Shown piece by piece: positions 5,810 to 36,343 of a DNA stretch of 64,000 nt. The stretch lies in the sequence record LC739537.1; one strand, given 5' to 3'. Source of the DNA: Escherichia phage phiWec188. The notes under the pieces were generated by a model that worked only from the letters and a program-made list of their open reading frames with translations, searched no databases and had not been told where the DNA came from. Both the position numbers and the translations under genes were made by a program. Position 1 is the first letter of the stretch; every line of letters starts with the position of its first letter.

Positions 5810-6921
5810 AACAGACAAATCAGACACTTTACGGTAAAGACTCAAATGGCAAACTGAAGCAATGGACTGTTTTCACAGACGGTGCAACAGTTACTGTAGC
5901 TCACGGTAAAGTTGGTGGAAAGATTACACAAAAATCATACGAAGCGGAAGCTAAAAATACTGGACGTGCAAATGCAACCACTCCAGAAGAACAAGCAGAA
6001 GCTGAAGCTTTTGCCAAGTGGACAAAACAACTGAAAAATGGTTATTATAAAACTATGGAAGAGGCGGAGAACCACGTCCCATCCACACCTATGAAATGCC
6101 AGGACTATAAAGATTTTGCGCATAAGGTGGTCTTCCCTGGATATGCACAATACAAACTGAATGGCTTACGTTCAATGATCAACATGAAGGGCGAATGTTT
6201 GTCTAAAGCTGGAGAAGTTTACAAACTCCCTCCGCACTGGCAAGGTATTCCAAACTTCATCAGCGAAGTTGTTGGTCATCCTCTGGATGGGGAAGTGTTC
6301 GCTGGTCTTGGTGTTCTTAGTTTGCAACAGATTAATAGTGCATGGAAAAAGCACAATGAGAACACGCCGCTCCTGAACTACTATGTTTACGATGTTCCTG
6401 TGGCAGATATGCCATTTGAGAAGCGTGTTGAAGTATTGGCGGCTCTTAAGGCTGTAGCTGAAGAGAGTGGTCTGGATGAACTGATCTGTGTCGTACATAC
6501 AGAGTATATTGAAAATCAAGAACAGTTGGATGCATTTTATGTTAAAGCTTTACTTGAAAAAGCTGAAGGTATCGTGTATCGTAATGCTCATGGTGTCTAT
6601 GAGTTTGATAAACGTTCCTATGACGTGATCAAACGAAAACCACGCCAGACTTTGGAAGTTAAAGTTATTTCTATGCGTTCTGATAAAAATAACGATGGGG
6701 TGTTGACAGGTGAGATGGAGAATGGTAAACTTGTTGAGTTCTTGATGCGAAAAGATGCTCACGAAACTATCAACTACCGTAAAGCAGAGAATGCCGAAAC
6801 TTTGATTGATCAGTTTGTTGAGATTGAGTATGAAGAATTTTCTGACGAAGGTATCCCAACTAAACCAGTCGGTGTACGTCTTCGTAAAATGATCCCAGGG
6901 ACTTGGGAGCCAGCAGAATAA
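5806..6921 (+). CDS. ATP-dependent DNA ligase-like nucleotidyltransferase (371 aa), probable TTG start
   Basis: covalent nucleotidyltransferase motifs: I KLNGLR (noncanonical N for D), III LDGEVF, IV EGIVYR, V VIKRK, C-terminal OB-like region; GGAGGAAGG RBS before in-frame TTG; N-terminal 46 codons of the ORF-track call overlap the upstream gene. Confidence 0.6.
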   Translation: MKQTNQTLYGKDSNGKLKQWTVFTDGATVTVAHGKVGGKITQKSYEAEAKNTGRANATTPEEQAEAEAFAKWTKQLKNGYYKTMEEAENHVPSTPMKCQDYKDFAHKVVFPGYAQYKLNGLRSMINMKGECLSKAGEVYKLPPHWQGIPNFISEVVGHPLDGEVFAGLGVLSLQQINSAWKKHNENTPLLNYYVYDVPVADMPFEKRVEVLAALKAVAEESGLDELICVVHTEYIENQEQLDAFYVKALLEKAEGIVYRNAHGVYEFDKRSYDVIKRKPRQTLEVKVISMRSDKNNDGVLTGEMENGKLVEFLMRKDAHETINYRKAENAETLIDQFVEIEYEEFSDEGIPTKPVGVRLRKMIPGTWEPAE

Positions 6922-6931
6922 AGGAGGTTGT

Positions 6932-7120
6932 ATGTTGATTTTAACAGTGTATATCTTGTTGTCAGTATTGGCTGTATGCTGTATGTTTCTTAGCTGTTGC
7001 AAAGATAAGACACTTTTAGTCTCTGTAGCAAAAACTATAGATGCGATAATGGCGGGTGTTGGGTACGCAGCAGTGATCTACATTTTCTGTTTTTACTTTG
7101 TGGCTGAATGGGTTAATTAA
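6932..7120 (+). CDS. small membrane protein (62 aa)
   Basis: AAAGGAGG RBS; two hydrophobic helices. Confidence 0.5.
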   Translation: MLILTVYILLSVLAVCCMFLSCCKDKTLLVSVAKTIDAIMAGVGYAAVIYIFCFYFVAEWVN

Positions 7121-7129
7121 GGGGGATTT

Positions 7130-7318
7130 ATGGGTGTTGAAGTTTTTCTGATTCTTTTGTTGCTTTCTATTGTGGCTTGTGGTATTATTATGGCTTCTAC
7201 ATTCCCATTAAACACTTGGTGGCGAAAATTAAGTCTGATGCTTATATACTGTGCAGCAGGTGCACAAATGGGTTCGGTTGTTGTCTACTTGACTGAACTC
7301 GCAAAAAACTATTTTTAA
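7130..7318 (+). CDS. small membrane protein (62 aa)
   Basis: AAGGGGGA RBS; hydrophobic. Confidence 0.5.
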   Translation: MGVEVFLILLLLSIVACGIIMASTFPLNTWWRKLSLMLIYCAAGAQMGSVVVYLTELAKNYF

Positions 7319-7331
7319 TAAGGAGAACAAG

Positions 7332-8060
7332 ATGATCGAGAACTTTTTTAAAGAGATTAAGGTAGATGTGGACTTCTATAAGAAAGCAGCTAAACATGTA
7401 ATCGATTGGAATGCAAAAGCGCGTGGCGGAGAACAGCCGGAATTTGACCAGGCAATGTTTGTTTCCCAAATCGGGTTTGTTCGTGAAGAACTGAAAGAGT
7501 ATGAAGAAGCCGCTAAAACTAATGATCACGTTGAACTCTTGGATGCAGCCGCCGATGTATTCGTTGTTTCCAGTTACCTGGTGTACATGTTCTTTGGTGA
7601 AGAAGCAACTCTGAAGTTCCTTGAGAATCAGGTTGGTACTGTCTTCACAGAAACAATCTACACCGATTTCGACAATATGGAAGCTACCTTCACTGATCCT
7701 GTTCAGATGGCAGTATTGAGTGCTGGTATTATGAACCTTGCGCGTGATACGCTGGTGCGTTCTGTTTATGCCGACAAAAAGATTATGAAAGAAGTTCTTG
7801 ACAGTAATGACTCTAAGTACCCTACTAAGAAGCAACTGCTGGCTGTATGGAATACTTCCGATATTGATCTTGCAATTTCACAAGAATGTGCAGCGATTGA
7901 AGAGCGTAATGCCAATCGTCCTGAAGGTGCTTACACTGGCGTACATGCTACGTACAATGAAAAACAGAAAGTTTATGTGTTCTTTGATGATAAAGGTAAG
8001 ATCATGAAGCCTTCTACCTTTGTTAAACCTGATATTGCAAAAATCATTACTAAGAAATAA
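7332..8060 (+). CDS. hypothetical protein; possible MazG-like all-alpha NTP pyrophosphohydrolase (242 aa)
   Basis: AAGGAGAA RBS; E-x-x-E-E...D acidic helix pattern (EELKEYEEAAKTNDHVELLDAAADV) reminiscent of MazG/HisE fold; weak. Confidence 0.3.
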   Translation: MIENFFKEIKVDVDFYKKAAKHVIDWNAKARGGEQPEFDQAMFVSQIGFVREELKEYEEAAKTNDHVELLDAAADVFVVSSYLVYMFFGEEATLKFLENQVGTVFTETIYTDFDNMEATFTDPVQMAVLSAGIMNLARDTLVRSVYADKKIMKEVLDSNDSKYPTKKQLLAVWNTSDIDLAISQECAAIEERNANRPEGAYTGVHATYNEKQKVYVFFDDKGKIMKPSTFVKPDIAKIITKK

Positions 8061-18349: not shown

Positions 18350-19421
18350 TTTACATAACGAGACTTACAAAACAGGTAAATATCCAGTTTTCATGGGGGA
18401 ACAGTTGGGGATTTTTGATTCTATCAACGTGACTTACCCTGAAATGCACCGTCTGTATAAACTCCAGAAAGCCCAAGATTGGGATGAGAATGAAGTGGAT
18501 CTTAGTCAGACCCGTAAAGACTTTGTAGCGTGTTCAAAAAACAACTACGATGTTATGATCAAGAACTTGTCGTTCCAGTGGGAGAATGATTCCCTGGCAA
18601 AATCAATCATCACTTTGTTCTCTCCGTTTTTGAGCAACAATGAAGCTTGCGCTATGATGATGAAGCAGAGTGAAATGGAAGTGCTTCATGCTCTAACTTA
18701 CTCGGAGATCGTTCGCCAGTGTACTCCAAACCCTGTAGAAGTTATTGATCAGATTATGGAGAACGATAAGATCTTCAACCGTATGGGTATCATTGCAGAG
18801 ATCATGGGAGATTTGGAAGAAGCAGGTCACAAATATGCACTTGGTCTGATTGAAGCTGATGATAAACTACGTTTGCTGGTCATGAAAGGTCTGGTAGCCC
18901 TGATTGGTCTGGAAGGTATCCAGTTTATCTCTTCTTTCTCGGCAACGTTCGCCTTGGCAGAACAGCAACTGTTTGTAGGTGCTTGTAAACTGATTCAGAA
19001 AATCATGTTGGATGAAATCCTGCATGTTAAAATGGACTATGCTGTCATTGATGCTCTGATGCAAGATCCTGTGTGGAAGAAGATCTACGAAGATAACATC
19101 GAAGAACTTACAACTATTCTGGATACAGTTATCGCTCAAGAAGAGCAGTGGTGTGATTATCTGTTTAGTGAAGGACGTTTTATCGTTGGGCTGAATGCTG
19201 AACTATCCCGTCAATGGGTGTACTTCAATGCGGCTCCAATTTATCGTCGTCTGAAGATGAAGCACAGCTTTAAATCTCCTAAACAGAACCCACTACCTTG
19301 GATGGACATTTGGTTAAACCCAGATCAGATTCAAGCAGCGGCGCAAGAGATCCAGGTTACAGCTTATAAACTGAACTCGGCTAACAAAGATGTTTCTGAT
19401 GATATGGAGTTTGACTTTTAA
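18336..19421 (+). CDS. nrdB: ribonucleoside-diphosphate reductase class Ia beta subunit (361 aa)
   Basis: R2-type ferritin-like helices with conserved E/H iron ligands, adjacent to nrdA; GGAGGA RBS. Confidence 0.9.
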   Translation: MAAINLHNETYKTGKYPVFMGEQLGIFDSINVTYPEMHRLYKLQKAQDWDENEVDLSQTRKDFVACSKNNYDVMIKNLSFQWENDSLAKSIITLFSPFLSNNEACAMMMKQSEMEVLHALTYSEIVRQCTPNPVEVIDQIMENDKIFNRMGIIAEIMGDLEEAGHKYALGLIEADDKLRLLVMKGLVALIGLEGIQFISSFSATFALAEQQLFVGACKLIQKIMLDEILHVKMDYAVIDALMQDPVWKKIYEDNIEELTTILDTVIAQEEQWCDYLFSEGRFIVGLNAELSRQWVYFNAAPIYRRLKMKHSFKSPKQNPLPWMDIWLNPDQIQAAAQEIQVTAYKLNSANKDVSDDMEFDF

Positions 19422-19639
19422 TGAAACTTAAATGTGTAGGATTGATCGACACATTCAAAGACGTATTTGACAAAGGGGCTTCCTATGAAGCCTCGGAGTT
19501 AAAGAACGGTTTTTGTGATGTGCATGGTAAACGTCTTAAGAAAAACGGAGAACCCTGGCTTGGTGTTATGTCTTGTGGTCATATTGTGGTTAACGGTGTT
19601 GCAAAGTTTGAAATCGTAAAGGAGGAAGATAATGAGTGA
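19421..19639 (+). CDS. hypothetical protein (72 aa)
   Basis: TAATG overlap with nrdB stop. Confidence 0.5.
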   Translation: MKLKCVGLIDTFKDVFDKGASYEASELKNGFCDVHGKRLKKNGEPWLGVMSCGHIVVNGVAKFEIVKEEDNE

Positions 19640-19775
19640 GTTTCGTTTTTGCCCTATTTGTGGTGGTACAGGTAATGCCTTAATTAGTGCGGAGCAGTAC
19701 AGCCCGTGTTGGCATTGTTCTGGTAGTGGTTTGGTAGTTGAAGAAAACAAAGAGGAGGAAAAAGATGGGGATTGA
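19632..19775 (+). CDS. small zinc-ribbon ORF (47 aa)
   Basis: AAAGGAGGAAGA RBS; CPICGG...CWHCSGSG; overlaps neighbours by a few nt. Confidence 0.4.
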   Translation: MSEFRFCPICGGTGNALISAEQYSPCWHCSGSGLVVEENKEEEKDGD

Positions 19776-20091
19776 TATCGAGTGGAAGATGGTGCAAGGC
19801 GCACCATATAAGAAATGGGAAGAAGTGTTTAAAGGCGATCCGCAGATTGAAGATCAATTCGATGGGGATTTCAACTGGTTTCTTTACGAAGGTATTGGAC
19901 TGGTAAACGTATCCCCGTGGTATGATGCAGATCCTGAAGATTGTGTCTTTGGTATTGAACTTGCGTCAGGATGCAGCGCACGGGCAATAGACCTCACAAG
20001 CTTGGATAAAAAAGCAAACGAGATCTATTTTGAACTGCTTAATAAGTATAACATTGAAACTGAAACGTTAGTATCACAGAACGTCTGGTAA
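19765..20091 (+). CDS. hypothetical protein (108 aa)
   Basis: GAGGAGGAAAAAG RBS at internal ATG of ORF 19738..20091. Confidence 0.5.
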   Translation: MGIDIEWKMVQGAPYKKWEEVFKGDPQIEDQFDGDFNWFLYEGIGLVNVSPWYDADPEDCVFGIELASGCSARAIDLTSLDKKANEIYFELLNKYNIETETLVSQNVW

Positions 20092-20100
20092 GGAGATTAA

Positions 20101-20298
20101 ATGAAAGACCAAATGATTAATGGACCTCGTGTAACAGTTAGTCCTAAAACTTTTGCATCTCTTCTGGACGACACTGGTGAGGTTTATACTTACACAAGAG
20201 ATTCACTGCCTCTGCCTGAAAGTGCACAGGGTTCACGTTCGCTTTTTTATAAAGGTGTTCTTTTTACGGAAGCAAAAGAAGACAAGGAGACTAAATGA
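20101..20298 (+). CDS. hypothetical protein (65 aa)
   Basis: TAAGGAGA RBS. Confidence 0.5.
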   Translation: MKDQMINGPRVTVSPKTFASLLDDTGEVYTYTRDSLPLPESAQGSRSLFYKGVLFTEAKEDKETK

Positions 20299-21287
20299 GA
20301 TACCTGGTAACAGGTGGTCTTGGTTTCATTGGGAGCGCCGTAGTGCGCTCTCTTTGTCAAGATCCTAAAAATGAAGTTTTTGTTATTGATAAAATGGGCT
20401 ATGCTGCTGACATTGAAAATGTCGGAGATATTACTCATGCGAAACTAAGCATGACAGATCTGGTCGATGAAGCACAAGTTAAAAACTTGGTTGTTGAGTG
20501 TAACCCTGATTTCATCATTCACTTGGCAGCAGAGAGTCATGTAGACAATTCGATCAAGAATCCACGAGCTTTTATCGACTCTAACATCATCGGTACATAT
20601 AATCTGTTAGAAGCTGCAAGGCTTCTTCCTAAGAACAAGCTGAAGATGTTTGTACACGTCTCTACAGACGAAGTGTACGGCGATATGGAGGACTCTGGTG
20701 CTCCCTTTACCGAAGAGACAGCTTATGCTCCTTCAAGCCCATACAGCGCGTCTAAGGCGGCATCTGATCACCTTGTCAAAGCTTGGCACCGTACTTACGA
20801 TTTACCTGTAGTGATAACCAACTGTTCCAATAACTTTGGGCCTTACCAACACCCTGAAAAATTGATTCCAAAAGTGATCACGAACATCTTGACAGACCAA
20901 CCTATTCCCGTATACGGTAAAGGCGATCAGGTACGAGATTGGCTTTTCGTAGAAGATCATGCACGAGCTATTATTTTGGCAGCAACGGGCGGGGAAGTAG
21001 GACAAACCTACAACGTAGGTACACGCAATCCTAAAACAAACATGGAAATCATTTACATGATTTGTGATTACATGGATGCTGTTCACCCATCCTTCGGGAC
21101 ATACCCTGCTTCCGGTTTGATTAGTTTTGTTGAAGATCGTAAAGGTCATGACTTGCATTATGAAATCAATCCTGCTAAGATTGAATCTGAACTGGGTTGG
21201 AAAGCAAACTCTACATTCGAAGAAGACTTGTACTCTACGATTGAATGGTATTTAAATAATCCTCAATGGTGGAGTATGAAGATTTAA
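20295..21287 (+). CDS. rmlB: dTDP-glucose 4,6-dehydratase (330 aa)
   Basis: N-terminal Rossmann GGLGFIGS, catalytic YSASK (YxxxK), SDR extended family; first gene of 4-gene rml cluster. Confidence 0.85.
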
Positions 21288-21295
21288 GGAGGGTT

Positions 21296-22174
21296 ATGAA
21301 AGGTATTATTTTAGCGGGAGGAAGTGGAACCCGCCTACATCCTGTAACACGCAGTGTGAGCAAGCAATTGCTCCCTGTGTATGACAAACCTATGATTTAT
21401 TATCCTTTATCAGTCTTGATGTTGTCAGATATTAAGGATATCTTAATCATCACAACCCCAGGCGATCAGGAAGATTTTGAGTATCTTCTTGGAGATGGGT
21501 CTATGTTTGGAATAAAGATCACTTACGCAATGCAGTCTGAACCACGAGGTCTTGCAGATGCTTTCATCATCGGTAAAGATTTTATTGGGGAAGATTCTGT
21601 TGCTCTTATTTTAGGGGATAACTTGTTCTTCGGACAAAGTTTCGGAAAACTCCTTATCCAAGCCAGCGAAATGGTGGATGTTTGGGGTGGAGCTTGTATC
21701 TTCGGGTATCTGGTGAAAGATCCTGAACGATTCGGTGTTGTTGAGTTTGGAAGTAATCGCCAAGCTATCTCTATTGAAGAGAAACCGGAACATCCCAAAT
21801 CAGACTATGCAGTCACGGGTTTGTATTTCTATGACAACTCTGTTGTTCAACGTGCATTGGAAGTAACTCCTTCCGATCGTGGAGAACTGGAGATCACAGA
21901 TATCAATCGCAGCTACCTCGAAGACAGGAAGTTACAAGTGGAAGTTCTTGGAAGAGGATTCACTTGGTTGGATACAGGGACACACGCCAGTCTAATGGAA
22001 GCAGGTCAATTCGTGCAGACTATTGAGAACTGCCAAGGATTGAAGATTGCGTGCCTGGAAGAGATTGCTTTCAAAAAAGGGTGGATTTCTTTAGAGACTT
22101 TGGTGTATCATGGCAACTCATTGAAGAAAACAGAGTACGGGCAATATCTGTTAAAATTAGCGGAGGGTAAATGA
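21296..22174 (+). CDS. rmlA: glucose-1-phosphate thymidylyltransferase (292 aa)
   Basis: [16 protein letters not shown]...[18 protein letters not shown] signature of RmlA; TAAGGAGGG RBS. Confidence 0.9.
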
Positions 22175-22731
22175 AAATAAAAGAATTAAGTATTCCTGGT
22201 CTGGTTGTCTTTAAACCTCAAGTTTACAAAGATGATCGTGGTTCCTTCACGGAGACGTTTAACGAGAAGATTTACGAAGAGGTTATTGGCAAACAAACGT
22301 TTGTTCAGGATAACCATTCATTCTCTACTTTAGGTGTTCTTCGCGGAATGCACTTTCAAGTAAATAACCCGCAAGGTAAGCTTGTACGTTGCACACGAGG
22401 TGAAGTTTTTGACGTGGCTGTAGATCTTCGTGAAGGTAGTCCAACCTTCGGACAATGGGAAGGTGTGATTCTTAGTGGGTGTAACAATAAACAGTTGTGG
22501 ATTCCACCTGGCTTTGCACATGGTTTTGTTGTAACCTCTTATGAAGCCAACTTTGAATACAAGTGCACCAACTACTACGATCCGGCATCTGAACGTAGTT
22601 TGTTGTGGAACGATCCTACTGTGAATATTGATTGGGGTTTTGATATGATTTTCAATGATGAGAATTTTGTACCCATCATTTCGGAAAAGGATGCACAAGC
22701 TAAAACACTGAAGGAGCTTATGGGATCATGA
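22171..22731 (+). CDS. rmlC: dTDP-4-dehydrorhamnose 3,5-epimerase (186 aa)
   Basis: cupin-fold RmlC segments ([21 protein letters not shown]), ATGA overlap with rmlA. Confidence 0.85.
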
Positions 22732-23570
22732 AAACATATTTAGTATTGGGTGGTAATGGTCAATTAGGTCAGGCACTGCGTAAAGTGGTGCCGGAGAATG
22801 TGACTTTGGTGTATCCAGAAAAGCGTGTAGATATCACCAGTTTTGAAGCTGTGCGGAAAGCGATCATGGAAACCCCAAATATTAACGGTGTTATCAACTG
22901 TGCGGCATACACTGCTGTGGACAAAGCCGAGACAGATGTTGATGCAGCTATGGCTGTAAATTTACACGGGGCAGCTAATATTGCTGCCTTCTGTAAGGCT
23001 TGGGATATTGACATGGTGCATATTTCTACTGACTATGTGTTCAACAGCGATAAACCGTTGTTCCATCAGGATGAACCCAACCCTATCAATGTTTACGGGT
23101 TATCTAAAAGTTTGGGTGAAGCTGCTGTTCGTGGTATCTACCATAAAGCTTTTATTATCCGCACGGCTTCTGTGTATAGCGAGTTTGGTAACAACTTCCT
23201 GAAGACTATGGTATCTCGTTACAACGATGGTCAAAGAAACTTCTCGGTAGTTGCAGATCAAACATCTCGACCAACTTATGCCCCAGATTTGGCTAAGATG
23301 ATTTTCCAAGTGTTGGAAACAGGATATAACACCCGTACTTTGCATTACGCTGGGAACATCACTGTTTCGTGGCACCAGTTCGCAAAAATGATATTGACAC
23401 GTATGCCTGAATCTGTTATTATACACCCGACCTCTGCTGCAACCTATAATTCGGCAGCGATGCGACCAGCAAAGTCTATACTAATTACGTCTGGTTGGAA
23501 CGAACCTTCAAGCGTCGGACAAGGTATTGAAGAATCTTTAGCAGTATTACTTAATAAGGAGAGAGCATGA
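22728..23570 (+). CDS. rmlD: dTDP-4-dehydrorhamnose reductase (280 aa)
   Basis: N-terminal GGNGQLG Rossmann motif, ISTDYVF segment; follows rmlC with ATGA overlap. Confidence 0.8.
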   Translation: MKTYLVLGGNGQLGQALRKVVPENVTLVYPEKRVDITSFEAVRKAIMETPNINGVINCAAYTAVDKAETDVDAAMAVNLHGAANIAAFCKAWDIDMVHISTDYVFNSDKPLFHQDEPNPINVYGLSKSLGEAAVRGIYHKAFIIRTASVYSEFGNNFLKTMVSRYNDGQRNFSVVADQTSRPTYAPDLAKMIFQVLETGYNTRTLHYAGNITVSWHQFAKMILTRMPESVIIHPTSAATYNSAAMRPAKSILITSGWNEPSSVGQGIEESLAVLLNKERA

Positions 23571-23990: not shown

Positions 23991-24494
23991 ATGGCTAAAA
24001 AAGTAGTAGATGAGTTTGACATGTTGGCTGTTGATGAAGGACTGAAGCTGACTGTTTACCCAGACACCTTGGGATATTGGACAGTCGGCATTGGACACCT
24101 CTTAACTAAAAAGAAAGATAAGGCGGAAGCTATTCGTATTCTGGATGCTCTTGTTGGTCGCAAGACTAACGGAGTTATCACAGAGAAAGAAGCCCGTGCT
24201 ATCTTTGCTGACGATGTTGAAAAGGCGAAAAAACAGATTAAAAACAGTTCCATTCTTGCCCCAATTTATGATAAGGTGAGTGAAACCCGTAAACTGGCAA
24301 TCATCAATATGGTGTTCCAGTTGGGGTTAACCGGAACGGAAGGCTTTAAAAATAGCTTGACTTTAATCAGTAATTCGTACTATACTCAAGCTGGTAAAAA
24401 CATGAGAGCCAGTAAATGGTACTCTCAAACGCCAAACCGTGCAGAACGAGTAATCAAGGTTCTAACATCTGGGACTCTTGATTCTTACAACTAA
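23991..24494 (+). CDS. T4-type lysozyme (GH24 endolysin) (167 aa)
   Basis: strong collinear similarity to T4 lysozyme from memory: DEGLKL...YPDT...GYWTVGIGHLLTK...INMVFQ...SKWYSQTPNRAERVI (catalytic Glu/Asp/Thr positions conserved). Confidence 0.9.
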   Translation: MAKKVVDEFDMLAVDEGLKLTVYPDTLGYWTVGIGHLLTKKKDKAEAIRILDALVGRKTNGVITEKEARAIFADDVEKAKKQIKNSSILAPIYDKVSETRKLAIINMVFQLGLTGTEGFKNSLTLISNSYYTQAGKNMRASKWYSQTPNRAERVIKVLTSGTLDSYN

Positions 24495-24495
24495 C

Positions 24496-24518
24496 AAAGG
24501 GGCGCAAGCCCCTTCTAT
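24496..24518 (+). terminator. terminator-like hairpin GGGGC-GCAA-GCCCC with weak U-tract
   Basis: stem-loop directly after lysozyme stop; coordinates approximate. Confidence 0.4.
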
Positions 24519-24531
24519 AAGGAGTGCTACT

Positions 24532-25287
24532 ATGGGAAAAACAGCTACCGCTAAATCACCGCGCCAGAAGTTAGCTTCTAATGCGAAAGTAGAAAGTCGT
24601 TATGCTGCAAAAGCAGTTGGAAATGATGACTATCGTTTAGATGGGTTTTCACCAGAAGGAGATCAGCAGCAAATCGTTCAAAGTATGATCTGGAATGATC
24701 TTACAGTCGTAAATGCTCCAGCAGGGACAGGCAAGACTTCCGTGACTTTATGGAAAGCTTTGCAGATGCTTCGAGCAGGAGATTTCCGTAAGCTTCTTTT
24801 TATTAAAAACCCGACTGAAGTTGGTGATGATCAGATTGGTTTCCTTTCGGGAGATAAAACTGATAAACTGGCGGCGCACTACGAATCAACCAAACGAATC
24901 TTCCAGCAGTTTATGACTGCAAACAAATTAGAGAATGATATTGGTTCCGGTAAGATTGAACTTAATATCCCGAACTACCTACTGGGTGCTACCCTGGACA
25001 ACACTATCGTGATCATTGATGAAGCACAGCTTATGTCTCCAGAAACATTAAAACTTCTGGTAGAGCGTGCAGGGATCAACACTCATGTTGTTGTTCTTGG
25101 AGATGTTCGTCAAACCTACGCTATCAAAAAGCGTGCAAACGGTTTGAAAGATCTTCTTGACAAAGTTGCCCCTGAAGGTGAAGATGGTGTTCGTGTCCCT
25201 CTGGTAGACTTTATCGGTTATGTGCAGTTAACCACAGATGACAACAAACGATCTCGTTTGTCTAAGTTCATCACGGAAATTTATTAA
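24532..25287 (+). CDS. phoH: PhoH-like ATPase (251 aa)
   Basis: Walker A APAGTGKTS, Walker B IVIIDEAQ, typical PhoH length; internal ATG with AAGGAG RBS. Confidence 0.85.
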   Translation: MGKTATAKSPRQKLASNAKVESRYAAKAVGNDDYRLDGFSPEGDQQQIVQSMIWNDLTVVNAPAGTGKTSVTLWKALQMLRAGDFRKLLFIKNPTEVGDDQIGFLSGDKTDKLAAHYESTKRIFQQFMTANKLENDIGSGKIELNIPNYLLGATLDNTIVIIDEAQLMSPETLKLLVERAGINTHVVVLGDVRQTYAIKKRANGLKDLLDKVAPEGEDGVRVPLVDFIGYVQLTTDDNKRSRLSKFITEIY

Positions 25288-25325
25288 TAACAAAAAGCAA
25301 GGATGCTTTATTAAAGGGAGGGTCG

Positions 25326-25823
25326 ATGGTACAGACAATTATAGATCGGACTGGTATTGATGAATGTTACCAAACTGGGCTTGTGAAGCCTAACGAGTTC
25401 CGACAGATTTGCGTGAATCATATTGAGAAAGAAATTGCACTAACTTTGGAGAACCTTACCCTCCGAGACAAGCTGTCAATGTTTGTGGCTTGGTGTAAAG
25501 GTGAAGATTGGTTATTGGCCCATTTTCAAGAACTTTCTGATAGTCAAGAAGGCTTATATGAATGTATAATAGGAATAGCTGGCTCCAATCCTGAACTTCT
25601 CCATTTGGAAGAAGAAGAGGCGAAGTTACTGTTCTTAAGCAACATGTTCAATCGTAAAGCATTGCTTGTTCGTGAGTGTAGTGATCTTTTAAATCATCCA
25701 CTGGCGATCACAAACGAAATACTGGTTGACAAAGAGACATTACGTGCGATAGACTATCTGCGCAAGTATGTCAACGGCGGGAAAGCAGTTCTTAAAACAT
25801 TAACAGAGGAGGAAGCAGAATGA
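25326..25823 (+). CDS. hypothetical protein (165 aa)
   Basis: AAAGGGAGGG RBS. Confidence 0.5.
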   Translation: MVQTIIDRTGIDECYQTGLVKPNEFRQICVNHIEKEIALTLENLTLRDKLSMFVAWCKGEDWLLAHFQELSDSQEGLYECIIGIAGSNPELLHLEEEEAKLLFLSNMFNRKALLVRECSDLLNHPLAITNEILVDKETLRAIDYLRKYVNGGKAVLKTLTEEEAE

Positions 25824-26506
25824 CTACAATTATCGCAACCAAAAACAAGATCCTTAGCGACGGTAAAGTAACTTTCGGTGGTCGTGTAGATTCAACCAAT
25901 TTCAAGAAAGTACGTAAGATTGGGGATTATCTCGTAGGTGGCGCAGGGCGTTTAACTTCGGTTTTAGCTTTCTTCCAGTGGTTCGAACAGAACCTGCAAT
26001 GTGAAGCGGCGCGTGAGGCAGTGCCTGGGTTGATGATCAGTTCTAACCCTGATCGTGAAGATGAAGAGTTTATTGCTCTCGTTGTTCACCCAGACGGACG
26101 TATTTTCCTGCATGAAGGTAATGATCCTACCCGTGCATACCCAATCGACGAAGAATACTACGCAGTAGGCAGTGGTTCCGATTTTGCGCTCGCAGCACTG
26201 GATGGTGGTGCTTCTCCAGAAGCTGCTATGGAGGTTGCCAAGAAGCGTGACGCATACTCTGGTGGCGAAACATTCGTTGAAGAATTAGACGAGATCATCG
26301 AACTGACTGACGAAGATCTCGAAAACTTCACCAAACAAGAACTGATCAACCTGCTTAAGTTTGGCGATCCTGCTGGTGAAGAAACTCCTCGTGACGTGGC
26401 AGGTGACGAGACGGCAGGAGAAGTTGTAGTAGAAAAAGACTTGACTTCAAAACCGGAAAATATTAATCTCGTAAATGTAGCGGATTTCGAGAATCCCGCT
26501 TCTTAA
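25820..26506 (+). CDS. HslV / proteasome beta-subunit-like Ntn-hydrolase with acidic C-terminal extension (228 aa)
   Basis: N-terminal MTTI (Thr directly after Met), KKVRKIG...VGGAG and AVGSGSDFALAAL segments parallel HslV (TTIV..., KKVRRL..AGFAGG, AIGSGG). Confidence 0.55.
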   Translation: MTTIIATKNKILSDGKVTFGGRVDSTNFKKVRKIGDYLVGGAGRLTSVLAFFQWFEQNLQCEAAREAVPGLMISSNPDREDEEFIALVVHPDGRIFLHEGNDPTRAYPIDEEYYAVGSGSDFALAALDGGASPEAAMEVAKKRDAYSGGETFVEELDEIIELTDEDLENFTKQELINLLKFGDPAGEETPRDVAGDETAGEVVVEKDLTSKPENINLVNVADFENPAS

Positions 26507-26511
26507 TAAAA

Positions 26512-26535
26512 CTGCCCCTTCGGGGGCATTTCTTA
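26512..26535 (+). terminator. rho-independent terminator (GCCCC-TTCG-GGGGC + ATTTCTT)
   Basis: GC stem-loop after stop; coordinates approximate. Confidence 0.5.
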
Positions 26536-26551
26536 CGCAGAGGAGATTACT

Positions 26552-26989
26552 ATGTTGAACGTTCCTGTTAAATTCGTCGATAGCTGTGTTAATGCTTACC
26601 AACAAACTTGTAAACGTGCCTCAAACTGTTTGCAGTCTTTGATTCAAACGCGGTACGTGATCCAAAAGAAAAGAAAGTGGTTTGGTAAGGATTCTTATAG
26701 TGTTAATGCGTTCGGGGAGTATCAACTCCAGTATGACGATAACATGCAACACATCTTAGAGTTTTTACTGATAAAAGATAAAATCTCCCCTGCGGATTAC
26801 CAGTTACTTAAATTCTACGATCAGAGTTTGTCTATTGAGGAAGTTATTCAAGATATCCTTTCTCGTAAGACAGATAAGAACACTGTTGGTATTACAAACT
26901 TAGAGATGCAATTGCTCAATGAGATCTTTTTGTTTGTGGAAGATGAGTCTGTAACTAAGGAGGAGCTTTTAAATGGCTTTAAGCTATGA
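26552..26989 (+). CDS. hypothetical protein (145 aa)
   Basis: GAGGAGA RBS. Confidence 0.5.
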   Translation: MLNVPVKFVDSCVNAYQQTCKRASNCLQSLIQTRYVIQKKRKWFGKDSYSVNAFGEYQLQYDDNMQHILEFLLIKDKISPADYQLLKFYDQSLSIEEVIQDILSRKTDKNTVGITNLEMQLLNEIFLFVEDESVTKEELLNGFKL

Positions 26990-27481
26990 TCGTCCAGAGT
27001 CCGATTACTATCCGACTCCGCAAAAAGCGATTAACTCGTTATTTAGCATTATTGATTTTAAAAATTTGAAAGAGGAAGGATTTACATTTGCAGAACCGTG
27101 TAGAGGACAAGCAGCGGCTATTTACCGTCACTTTCCTGAAGGTTCTCAGTATTGTGAGCTTGAAGAAGGTAAAGATTATTTTAGTCACGTATGGGAAAAT
27201 CGTCCCGACATTATAATCACGAATCCTCCATTCAAGCTGGCATTAGAGTTCTTGGAAAAGAGCTTGAAAGAAGCAGACGTGTCAGTCTACCTGCTTCGCC
27301 TGGGATTCCTTGAGTCAAAGAAACGTCGAGCGTTTCATCAAGAAAACCCCCTACGAATTTGATTGTACTCTCCGAACGTCCTTCGTTCGTAGCAGGTGGA
27401 ACAGATAAGACAGCGTATGCTTGGTACGTATACGATCCAAAACAAATTTTGGGTCTAACTCAACCATTTTATTTCGTTTAA
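26973..27481 (+). CDS. phage Dam-like N6-adenine DNA methyltransferase, interrupted by a -1 frame change at an A4C5 tract (about 27343-27351)
   Basis: frame 1 (26973..27362) carries YYPTP and IIITNPPF (motif IV-like); downstream -1 frame continues ...SERPSFVAGGTDKTAYAWYVYDP to a stop at about 27481; junction at GAAAACCCCC (heptamer A_AAC_CCC). Confidence 0.45.
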
Positions 27482-27491
27482 GGAGCACACT

Positions 27492-35055: not shown

Positions 35056-35550
35056 ATGTTTCAAGTAGAAATCCATGTGCACAACAGTTGTTCAAATTGC
35101 GAAACTTGTGGTTACAATAGTTCAACCATGATCACTATTAGCGGAGACTTAGGACATGCCAAGTTTGGCGAAGTCGCAAGCTGCTTCAGCGGAGAGGATG
35201 CAGATTGGCATGATATTGCTTTGTGGCTATGCGGAAGACTGAATGTAAATTGTAAAGACTTCCCTGAACTGTTGAGCCGAAATCTTGTCGATAGTCGGGA
35301 ACAAGCCTACAATATTTATGCCGCTTCTGTTTATGTTGATCATAAATGGGTAGAAGATGAAGAAGCTGAACGTTTGCTACGCCTCTACTATGAAGCAGAG
35401 GAAGCTTATGATAACTATTACAGCATGTCCAACATCCTGCGTTTGTTTGCAGAGTTTGATATTTACTTTGAAGTGAGTTATTCTGAAGATGAAGTGTATG
35501 ATTTTGATGACGATGATTACGAGGAGGATGAAGAATGCCAAGACGATTAA
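35056..35550 (+). CDS. hypothetical protein, Cys-rich N-terminus and strongly acidic C-terminus (164 aa)
   Basis: AGGAGGG RBS; CSNCETCG motif; DDDDYEEDEE tail. Confidence 0.5.
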   Translation: MFQVEIHVHNSCSNCETCGYNSSTMITISGDLGHAKFGEVASCFSGEDADWHDIALWLCGRLNVNCKDFPELLSRNLVDSREQAYNIYAASVYVDHKWVEDEEAERLLRLYYEAEEAYDNYYSMSNILRLFAEFDIYFEVSYSEDEVYDFDDDDYEEDEECQDD

Positions 35551-36338
35551 TAGTGATCAGCGGCGCTGGTCTAAGCGCCGATAGCGGTGTACAAACATTC
35601 CGTACAGAAACAGAGAGTGGAAAAGCATTATGGGACGAGTACGATTTAGAGGAGGTTTGTAATATTGGGGCATTCCAGGCAGGTTATCGTAGACGTACAT
35701 GTCCCGATTTACCTGTTATCGGAGGTGAGGATGAGGAAGGATACAACCTCTACAACAAGACCCATGATTTCTATAACAAGCGTCGTATAGAGTTGGATAA
35801 TATAGATCCAAACGCTGCACATCGTCTGATTGCTCGTTTATACTCAGAGTATGGCGCTGATCGTATTTTAAACATTACCACTAACGTAGACGATCTTTTG
35901 GAACGTGCTGGTGTTGTTCACGAAGATGTTCTGCATGTGCATGGCTACCTACCAGAAATTGTAGTGGATCGGAAGTTTATTAAAGAAATCGGTTATGCAA
36001 GTGTGGATGTGGATAAGTACGATTACGTGAAACCTAACGTTGTCTTCTTCGGGGAATCTGCTCCGCTGTACACAGAGATGTACCATATGCTCGATAATCT
36101 CACATCTCAGGATATGGTGATTGTTGTAGGTTGCTCTAATCAAGTGATCAACTTCAACTGGGAGTTGTTCCCAGCCCTCAATACAGGAACAAAGATGGTC
36201 GTAGTTAATCCTGGGGTTAATTACGAAGAAACACTTCTCTATGAAGATCGTGGAGTTTTTGTTTACCGAGAAAAAGCTGCAACAGCCTTCAGTAATGAAG
36301 GTTTCATTAAAATGATCGAAGACCACTTAAACAAATAA
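35535..36338 (+). CDS. SIR2-family (sirtuin-like) NAD-binding protein (267 aa)
   Basis: GAGLSADSGVQTFR (GAGxSxxSGIxxFR), TTNVDDLLERAG (TQNIDxLHxxAG), HG and VVFFGES motifs of Sir2 domain; canonical Cys4 Zn module not evident. Confidence 0.6.
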   Translation: MPRRLIVISGAGLSADSGVQTFRTETESGKALWDEYDLEEVCNIGAFQAGYRRRTCPDLPVIGGEDEEGYNLYNKTHDFYNKRRIELDNIDPNAAHRLIARLYSEYGADRILNITTNVDDLLERAGVVHEDVLHVHGYLPEIVVDRKFIKEIGYASVDVDKYDYVKPNVVFFGESAPLYTEMYHMLDNLTSQDMVIVVGCSNQVINFNWELFPALNTGTKMVVVNPGVNYEETLLYEDRGVFVYREKAATAFSNEGFIKMIEDHLNK

Positions 36339-36343
36339 ACCAA

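Follow-up and report, generated by a model that had tools for sequence, protein, structure and literature searches.

A proteasome-type threonine peptidase homolog of Escherichia phage phiWec188, predicted to act without an HslU unfoldase

We analysed a stretch of 64,000 nucleotides (nt) of Escherichia phage phiWec188 (LC739537.1; "the window" below means this whole stretch) and focused on an HslV/proteasome-beta-like gene in it. As judged from sequence and structure-model comparisons, its product is a true homolog of HslV and the 20S beta subunits, i.e. a proteasome-type N-terminal nucleophile (Ntn) hydrolase. We consider it reasonably probable that the protein is a phage-lineage proteasome homolog (PHROG 1040, PPH/RPC type) that acts as an N-terminal-threonine peptidase without an HslU unfoldase. 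A reading made earlier from the DNA letters alone (the original prediction) had proposed an HslV/proteasome-beta-like Ntn hydrolase starting MTTI, with Thr directly after Met. The gene is indeed one + strand open reading frame (ORF) for 228 amino acids (aa) with that start, and PHROG, Pfam, PDB sequence and AlphaFold2 (AF2)/Foldseek evidence agree on the assignment. Since the family has already been annotated and described, the protein is correctly identified as one of a known but uncharacterised kind, and the finding amounts to annotating a described family and not to a discovery.

The protein matches the PHROG profile phrog_1040 ('peptidase HslV family') over residues 1-199 (E=3.4e-58, 198 bits) and Pfam Proteasome (PF00227) over residues 11-63 only (E=1.2e-5; 25.5 bits versus a gathering score of 22.4 bits). 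In a phmmer search against PDB sequences, HslV stands alone at the top (1m4y, Thermotoga, E=1.3e-8) and 20S beta subunits come next; E. coli HslV is found at an E-value of about 3e-5, with an alignment that runs from Met1-Thr2. Using 55 homologs as input, we obtained an AF2 single-chain model with an overall predicted local distance difference test score (pLDDT) of 83.6, and above 90 in the core (residues 1-155). Foldseek searches of this model against the PDB returned HslV, BPH and 20S beta structures at E-values of 1e-10 to 1e-8, with TM-scores normalised to the target of 0.55-0.70. The model contains helices H1 (45-67), H3 (120-128) and H4 (133-143), and a loop at 68-83. By these scores, the likeness to HslV and the proteasome is far above chance.

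The catalytic residues are in place. In an alignment to the HslV sequence of E. coli MG1655, Thr2 of the phage protein corresponds to HslV Thr1, Asp14 to Asp17, Lys30 (within KKVRKIG) to Lys33, Gly40-Gly43 (within VGGAG) to Gly45-Gly48, and Gly117-Ser118-Gly119 (GSG) to Gly123-Ser124-Gly125, Ser124 being the equivalent of proteasome Ser129. The three segments that the original prediction had picked out (KKVRKIG, VGGAG and GSG) are thus present and align with HslV catalytic positions. From their alignment positions and the proteasome numbering, we take Asp144 and Ser147 to be the counterparts of proteasome Asp166 and Ser169.

We scanned 1.84 billion cluster representatives with a HMMER family profile, which gave 10,451 proteins at E<=1e-3, 58 of them at E<=1e-30. 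At the top stand some dozens of extended proteins (183-350 aa), and a long list of proteins of 137-155 aa that start with MTT comes after them; 129 of the best 147 matches start with MTT(I/V). Conservation was counted in 115 diverse representatives (50% identity) with an intact N-terminus, classed as short or extended. Lys33 and both glycines of G-S/T-G are kept in all 115, Thr1 in 114, Asp17 in 113 (the remaining two have Glu) and Asp144 in 112. The original prediction had asked for the equivalents of Thr1, Lys33, Gly45 and Ser124 to be checked and had named a lost catalytic triad as an outcome that would overturn it; all four are intact in the phage protein, and the triad is nearly invariant across the 115 representatives. 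We also compared the gene with its ortholog in PsgM04F, a 97%-identical relative (Pseudomonas phage, complete genome, OR584014.1). All 150 compared core residues are identical at a synonymous divergence (dS) of 0.33, and the ratio of nonsynonymous to synonymous substitution rates (dN/dS, Nei-Gojobori) of the core is 0.009; the core is under strong purifying selection. From its residues and their conservation, the enzyme is almost certainly active, as a prediction.

Judged by profile scores, alignment and the model, the phage protein is a diverged homolog and not an HslV ortholog. It scores 32.4 and 30.9 bits on the NCBIfam HslV equivalogs NF003964 and TIGR03692, versus cutoffs of 137 and 157.75 (E. 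coli HslV: 303.8 and 288.2 bits). With E. coli HslV it shares only 26-27% identity, so no recent capture from the host is apparent. HslV is a dodecamer of two stacked hexameric rings around the active sites, and its helix H2 contributes residues to the pore and to the pocket that takes up the C-terminal tail of HslU. In the AF2 model of the phage protein H2 is absent, and the loop 68-83 sits where HslV has this helix; the region measures 27 aa in the extended relatives and 16 aa in the short members of the family. The H2 pore/apical residues Arg86, Leu88 and Arg89 of HslV are deleted (gap columns in 15 of 18 phage-family sequences), and Arg83 aligns with Asp. A Ser stands in the place of Lys28, which pairs with the HslU C-terminal carboxylate in the H. 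influenzae HslUV structure. Five residues (Phe54, Phe57, Ala79, Lys80 and Gln114) line the pocket that receives the HslU tail (PMC6429459); in the phage protein Ala79/Lys80 are replaced by Ser/Ser and Gln114 by Leu. As most of the HslU-tail pocket is missing, testing the enzyme with host HslU looks less promising than the original prediction assumed.

Proteasome-type peptidases normally need an ATPase ring to feed them substrates, and we searched for such a partner. Using E. coli HslU as tblastn query, we found no HslU (best E>5) in any of three targets: the window, the leading 50 kb of the Escherichia phage phiWec190 record (LC739539.1) and the complete PsgM04F genome. The original prediction, which had seen no HslU-like partner nearby, thus holds over this wider range. 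The PHROG-based annotation of the PsgM04F genome contains no Clp or Hsl ATPase, and no HslU is annotated in the part of LC739539.1. In a phage collection, peptidase homologs occur in 193 records, 106 of which are Escherichia phages; for HslU-like sequences the count is 164 records, chiefly of jumbo phages, with only 4 Escherichia records. We note that the nucleus-forming jumbo Erwinia phage RAY encodes an HslU-like ATPase (gp116, L016:4001-5710) without an adjoining HslV-like gene. Its neighbors gp115 and gp117-gp120 have no BLASTP similarity to HslV, so an ATPase without an adjacent peptidase gene also exists in phages.

Several known systems come close to the phage protein. With HslV (ClpQ), its best PDB match both by sequence and in Foldseek, it shares the fold, the residues Thr1/Asp17/Lys33/Gly45/Ser124, the M-T-T-I start and the lack of a propeptide; unlike HslV, it lacks H2, most HslU-pocket residues and an hslU gene, and it carries a C-terminal extension of 73 aa. 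Closer still in its features is the PPH/RPC type, defined in a survey of proteasome homologs (Fuchs, Alva and Lupas 2021, Bioinformatics, PMC8665760). According to this survey, PPH and RPC are, besides connectase, the only clusters that miss a flanking helix, namely H2; RPC is described as PPH-related plus a C-terminal extension of unknown structure, and the RPC C-terminal domains are given as unlike any known structure and as potential interaction sites. Measured against this description, the phage protein is similar in being encoded by Caudoviricetes and falling in the 'group I' HslV/BPH-like branch, in keeping H1, H3, H4 and the S1-S11 core together with the catalytic triad and the oxyanion glycine, in its compact core (about 140-155 aa) without propeptide and with Thr right after Met, and, as in RPC, in its 73-aa extension without Pfam match. 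In sequence and model features, it fits the PPH/RPC type (published representatives WP_042125023.1 for PPH and WP_140207863 for RPC), where the choice between PPH and RPC is one of features only. The survey's table lists RPC in Proteobacteria only and none in phages, whereas the extended clade described here is carried by phages and hardly occurs in bacterial reference genomes. A GTDB genome scan for bacterial or prophage copies, which rests on one peptide pattern, gave only a 425-bp stray contig and one distant metagenome-assembled genome.

BPH of Thiobacillus denitrificans (PDB 5ovs/5ovt) is an ATPase-less 'group I' homolog too (Foldseek rank 2, E=1.4e-10) and provides a precedent for a ring peptidase without a known unfoldase; it forms heptameric double rings (PMC5777263). 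BPH differs in keeping H2 (per PMC8665760), in not being phage-encoded and in having no C-terminal motif. Among phages, Salmonella jumbo phage pSal-SNUABM-04 has HslV-like ORFs without HslU in the same genome (PMC7823757, annotation only); such orphan HslV-like genes belong to phage lineages different from that of phiWec188. Public labels vary: phi92 gp58 is a 'putative 20S proteasome', RefSeq uses 'peptidase HslV family' for phAPEC8, phi92, ZCKP1 and others, and the peptidase gene is a 'hypothetical protein' in the LC739539.1 annotation. The latter phage (Stephanstirmvirinae, Phapecoctavirus) is about 100% identical to the window over the 3 kb from 24400 to 27400.

Beyond the Ntn core, the protein continues for 73 aa (residues 156-228) with 20 Asp+Glu versus 5 Lys+Arg. 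The original prediction had described an acidic C-terminal extension of about 60 aa; the acidity is borne out (net charge -15), while the extension is longer than that and is not uniformly unstructured, since it begins with a two-helix motif. This linker motif (156-184) has two short helices in the AF2 model (164-169 and 172-181, pLDDT 81-86), follows the consensus (L/I)(T/S)xExhxxh(S/T)(K/R)E(E/Q)L(L/I)xhLxxG, and is retained in 49 of 55 aligned homologs. It is still recognisable in Vibrio and Aeromonas phage proteins at about 36% identity and in many metagenomic representatives, and its dN/dS of 0.023 (window gene versus PsgM04F) indicates purifying selection. The motif has no Pfam match, and a hidden Markov model built from it matched no further ORF in the window or in the PsgM04F genome. 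It finds no mention in the passages of PMC8665760 considered here, and neither does the companion gene described below. Most short family members are without the linker motif and are also without H2, so the motif would be an add-on and no structural stand-in for H2. A docking or regulatory function is the most plausible one for it.

The tail that follows (185-228) is predicted to be disordered (pLDDT 40-56) and contains 11 Asp+Glu versus 3 Lys+Arg. In the comparison with PsgM04F its dN/dS is 0.4, in that with phAPEC8 it is 0.8-0.95, and with phi92 it is unalignable; the acidic tail evolves almost neutrally. Distant relatives have other modules in place of the tail, including Cys-rich (CxxC) segments and HeH/Rho_N-like ends ('...KY(A/S)HNIG.EKL'), and their extensions reach up to about 230 aa. 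Examples with extra C-terminal domains are found in Vibrio phage qdvp001 (L003:5001-5831) and Aeromonas phage phiA009 (L004:1673-2548); these extra domains of distant members have no significant Pfam match.

Two candidate identities for parts of the extension were rejected. A SAP/HeH identity of the linker motif has no Pfam match behind it, and the sole trace is a sub-threshold Rho_N match (E=0.17) located in the far C-terminus of an Aeromonas phage relative. A built-in HslU tail was considered because DEDLENF resembles the HslU C-terminus EDLSRFIL; this motif is internal and offers no free carboxylate, and the family consensus (S/T)KEELL..LxxG is unlike the HslU tail.

The peptidase gene is the last in a block that consists of a T4-type lysozyme gene, a PhoH-like ATPase gene, a gene for a 165-aa companion protein and the peptidase gene, in this order. 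The overlap between the companion stop codon and the peptidase start codon suggests translational coupling. The same block is found in phAPEC8 and phi92, and in two metagenomic contigs with peptidases 41-47% identical to the window protein and companion homologs at 30-38% identity (E-values 1e-20 to 1e-33); Vibrio phage qdvp001 has a similar layout, in which the upstream ORF is not detectably related to the companion. In the phage collection, the companion is found in the phAPEC8/phi92 group of enterobacterial phages only (133 records). On this sequence evidence, the 165-aa ORF is a conserved companion inside this clade (Stephanstirmvirinae plus two metagenomic relatives). A role of the companion as universal partner finds no support: in the Vibrio and Aeromonas phages, the upstream ORFs of comparable size show no detectable relation to it (hhalign probability 0.1-0.2%), although both weak alignments land on the same C-terminal strand-helix element. 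Neither the peptidase nor the companion has a PADLOC match that would link them to a defence system. The block lies in the nucleotide-metabolism (pre-late) region, together with genes for ribonucleotide reductase, thymidylate synthase, glutaredoxin and dTDP-sugar synthesis.

Putting these observations together, we propose the following scheme. The host methionine aminopeptidase would strip Met1 and expose the Thr nucleophile, given that Thr is allowed in second position and that E. coli HslV, with an identical M-T-T-I start, exposes its Thr in this way. In the proposed active site, Lys30 and Asp14 would relay protons and the Gly40-Gly43 loop would form the oxyanion hole, with Ser118, Asp144 and Ser147 as bracing residues. 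As the phage enzyme has no H2, gating and activation in the manner of HslV would not be possible, and the model suggests that it is probably constantly accessible to peptides and unfolded chains. With HslV-type gating lost, selectivity and regulation would have to come from elsewhere, the candidates being the two-helix motif, the lineage-variable C-terminal tails and domains, and possibly the companion protein. The enzyme would act in the cytoplasm before late gene expression. Its role is most likely proteolysis inside the infected cell, i.e. peptide and protein turnover or the removal of particular host or phage proteins, because the gene ends a conserved block within the nucleotide-metabolism region; a role in virion maturation is unlikely. 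The original prediction had suggested that the peptidase could process phage proteins or degrade host factors, and both remain candidate roles.

A bolder form of this scheme, which we regard as speculative and rather unlikely, joins the H2-less peptidase, the docking helices after its core and the coupled companion into a phage-specific, ATP-independent module for targeted proteolysis. The companion or the motif would deliver particular host proteins (e.g. defence or stress regulators) to an ungated mini-proteasome, and the lineage-specific C-terminal domains (Cys-rich, HeH/Rho_N-like or acidic) would retarget it from host to host. If true, it would give viruses their first functional proteasome-type system, and substrates would be selected in a new way. 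How such enzymes choose their substrates, and why they are under strong purifying selection in lytic phages of many Gram-negative hosts, is an already recognised question. The gene is carried by easily grown E. coli phages (phiWec190, phAPEC8 and phi92), in which biochemistry and genetics are directly doable, and the linker motif and companion gene offer concrete experimental handles.

Several observations weigh against an HslU-independent peptidase with a role in infection. Escherichia phage VEcB (NC_052663.1, 21585-21962) encodes a 267-aa fusion of a PhoH N-terminus with the HslV-like residues from 63 to the end; the deletion has removed the companion gene and the catalytic N-terminus with its Thr, so the peptidase is dispensable in at least one relative. 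The pocket face on helix H1 is partly kept (Phe57 corresponds to Phe52, and Phe54 is replaced by Leu49), so that some contact with host HslU may occur. PsgM04F encodes a 379-aa classic-clade AAA ATPase (phrog_2376, L007:41112-42251; PF00004, E=3.5e-9). The number of promoter and terminator calls in the region is not above the shuffled expectation, so the hairpin that begins 7 nt past the peptidase stop codon is a hint only. Literature searches turned up no functional or biochemical work on phage HslV-like or PPH proteins.

The partly kept pocket face bears on the alternative in which the phage peptidase docks on the host HslU hexamer, replaces or competes with HslV, and thereby redirects ATP-dependent degradation toward substrates chosen by the phage or titrates HslU off its usual ones. 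In its favour, the homology to HslV is genuine and extends to the M-T-T-I start, the phage has no HslU/ClpX-type unfoldase of its own while the host E. coli encodes HslU, and two hydrophobic pocket positions on helix H1 (Phe52 and Leu49) are kept. We nevertheless find this alternative unlikely, given that H2 is missing and that the equivalents of Lys28, Ala79, Lys80, Arg83, Arg86, Leu88, Arg89 and Gln114 are changed or deleted. The low identity to E. coli HslV and a best PDB match from Thermotoga rather than the host give no sign of adaptation to host HslU. The family is also present in phages of Vibrio, Aeromonas, Caulobacter and Rhizobium, and the pocket is not conserved there either.

A different use of the Thr1 chemistry is conceivable, in which the protein, as a monomer or in a small oligomer, cuts a defined phage or host protein at one specific sequence, or carries out a transpeptidation/ligation on it, as connectase does. 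The family has lost H2, and PMC8665760 describes several new homologs that look incompatible with stacked rings, with connectase being a ligase; moreover, the C-terminal domains that differ between lineages resemble targeting domains, and the companion could be a substrate or cofactor. On the other hand, archaeal connectase misses both H1 and H2 (per the same survey), whereas the phage protein has a long H1 (45-67). Its nearest matches in sequence and fold are the ring-forming peptidases HslV, BPH and 20S beta, and no recognisable substrate motif was found. Such a non-degradative enzyme seems to us distinctly unlikely.

The HslU-independent peptidase would also have to give way if the phrog_2376 ATPase were its unfoldase, the two making up a phage-encoded, two-part ATP-dependent protease. 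This ATPase has orthologs in phAPEC8 and phi92-like phages and is found in 106 Escherichia phage records, equal to the count for the HslV-like gene. It is encoded about 49 kb from the peptidase gene in PsgM04F, in another transcription block, and its distribution differs from that of the HslV-like gene and is much wider. The ATPase is prominent in phages of Enterococcus, Bacillus, Staphylococcus and Lactococcus (Gram-positive-infecting myoviruses), genera absent from the ten listed for the HslV-like gene; Vibrio, Rhizobium and Caulobacter are in turn absent from the ten genera listed for the ATPase, and the Aeromonas phages shown for the two genes differ. The ATPase has weak similarity to the Cdc48/p97 D2 domain, and inspection by eye revealed neither an aromatic-hydrophobic-Gly pore loop nor an HbYX or HslU-like C-terminus. 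A partnership of the two is, on this evidence, quite improbable.

A virion or prohead maturation protease is very improbable. Many phage-encoded proteases serve head maturation, and none is annotated as prohead protease by name in the PsgM04F genome; the HslV-like gene, however, sits among the nucleotide-metabolism genes, a long way from the structural module, and a separate S78/XkdF-type protease gene adjoins the portal gene of PsgM04F (126459-126938 of OR584014.1, L008:14460-14939, after the portal gene; Peptidase_S78_2/XkdF prohead protease match, E=1.5e-12). The label 'DNA methyltransferase' that this gene carries is, from the match, probably a mis-annotation. A catalytically dead decoy or scaffold that mimics HslV is hardly credible: phages do encode inactive mimics of host proteins, yet nothing specific speaks for one here, and the catalytic residues are invariant or nearly so in very divergent relatives, with a core dN/dS of about 0.01.

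Table 1. Coordinates in the window of the peptidase gene, its parts, its neighbors and local signals
Feature	Coordinates	Strand	Evidence and remarks
HslV/proteasome-beta-like gene	25820..26506	+	ORF list; 228 aa plus stop, ATG start, product MTTIIATKNK...
Ntn-hydrolase core, residues 1-155	25820..26284	+	alignments, AF2 secondary structure, dN/dS
Linker motif, residues 156-184	26285..26371	+	conservation, AF2, dN/dS
Acidic disordered tail, residues 185-228	26372..26503	+	pLDDT, dN/dS, composition
Shine-Dalgarno sequence GAGGAGG	25806..25812	+	direct reading; 7 nt 5' of the ATG, inside the companion gene at its 3' end
Companion gene, 165 aa, phrog_14834	25326..25823	+	TGA stop overlaps the peptidase ATG (ATGA)
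PhoH-like P-loop ATPase gene	24532..25287	+	Pfam PhoH E=1.9e-36; open frame from 24478, annotated coding-sequence start maps to 24532
T4-type lysozyme gene, first in block	23991..24494	+	Pfam Phage_lysozyme E=2e-11; synteny
Terminator-like GC hairpin TGCCCC-TTCG-GGGGCA, then T-rich run	26513..26536 (hairpin 26513-26528)	+	consensus scan

Other genes were noted in the same early region. A full dTDP-rhamnose-type sugar nucleotide pathway (rmlA-D-like) lies at about 20295-23570 of the window (19343-22618 of LC739539.1), and a Sir2/CobB-type NAD-dependent deacylase gene at about 35536-36339 (6574-7377 of LC739539.1); these window coordinates were calculated from the LC739539.1 coordinates. Downstream of the peptidase gene, a DNA methyltransferase gene (26973-27482) contains a run of five Cs at 27341-27346 that is six long in LC739539.1. 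The missing C splits the gene into ORFs 26973-27362 and 27359-27481, and the gene is an intact 510-nt coding sequence in LC739539.1, PsgM04F, phAPEC8 and phi92; the short run could be a sequencing or assembly error or result from homopolymer slippage.

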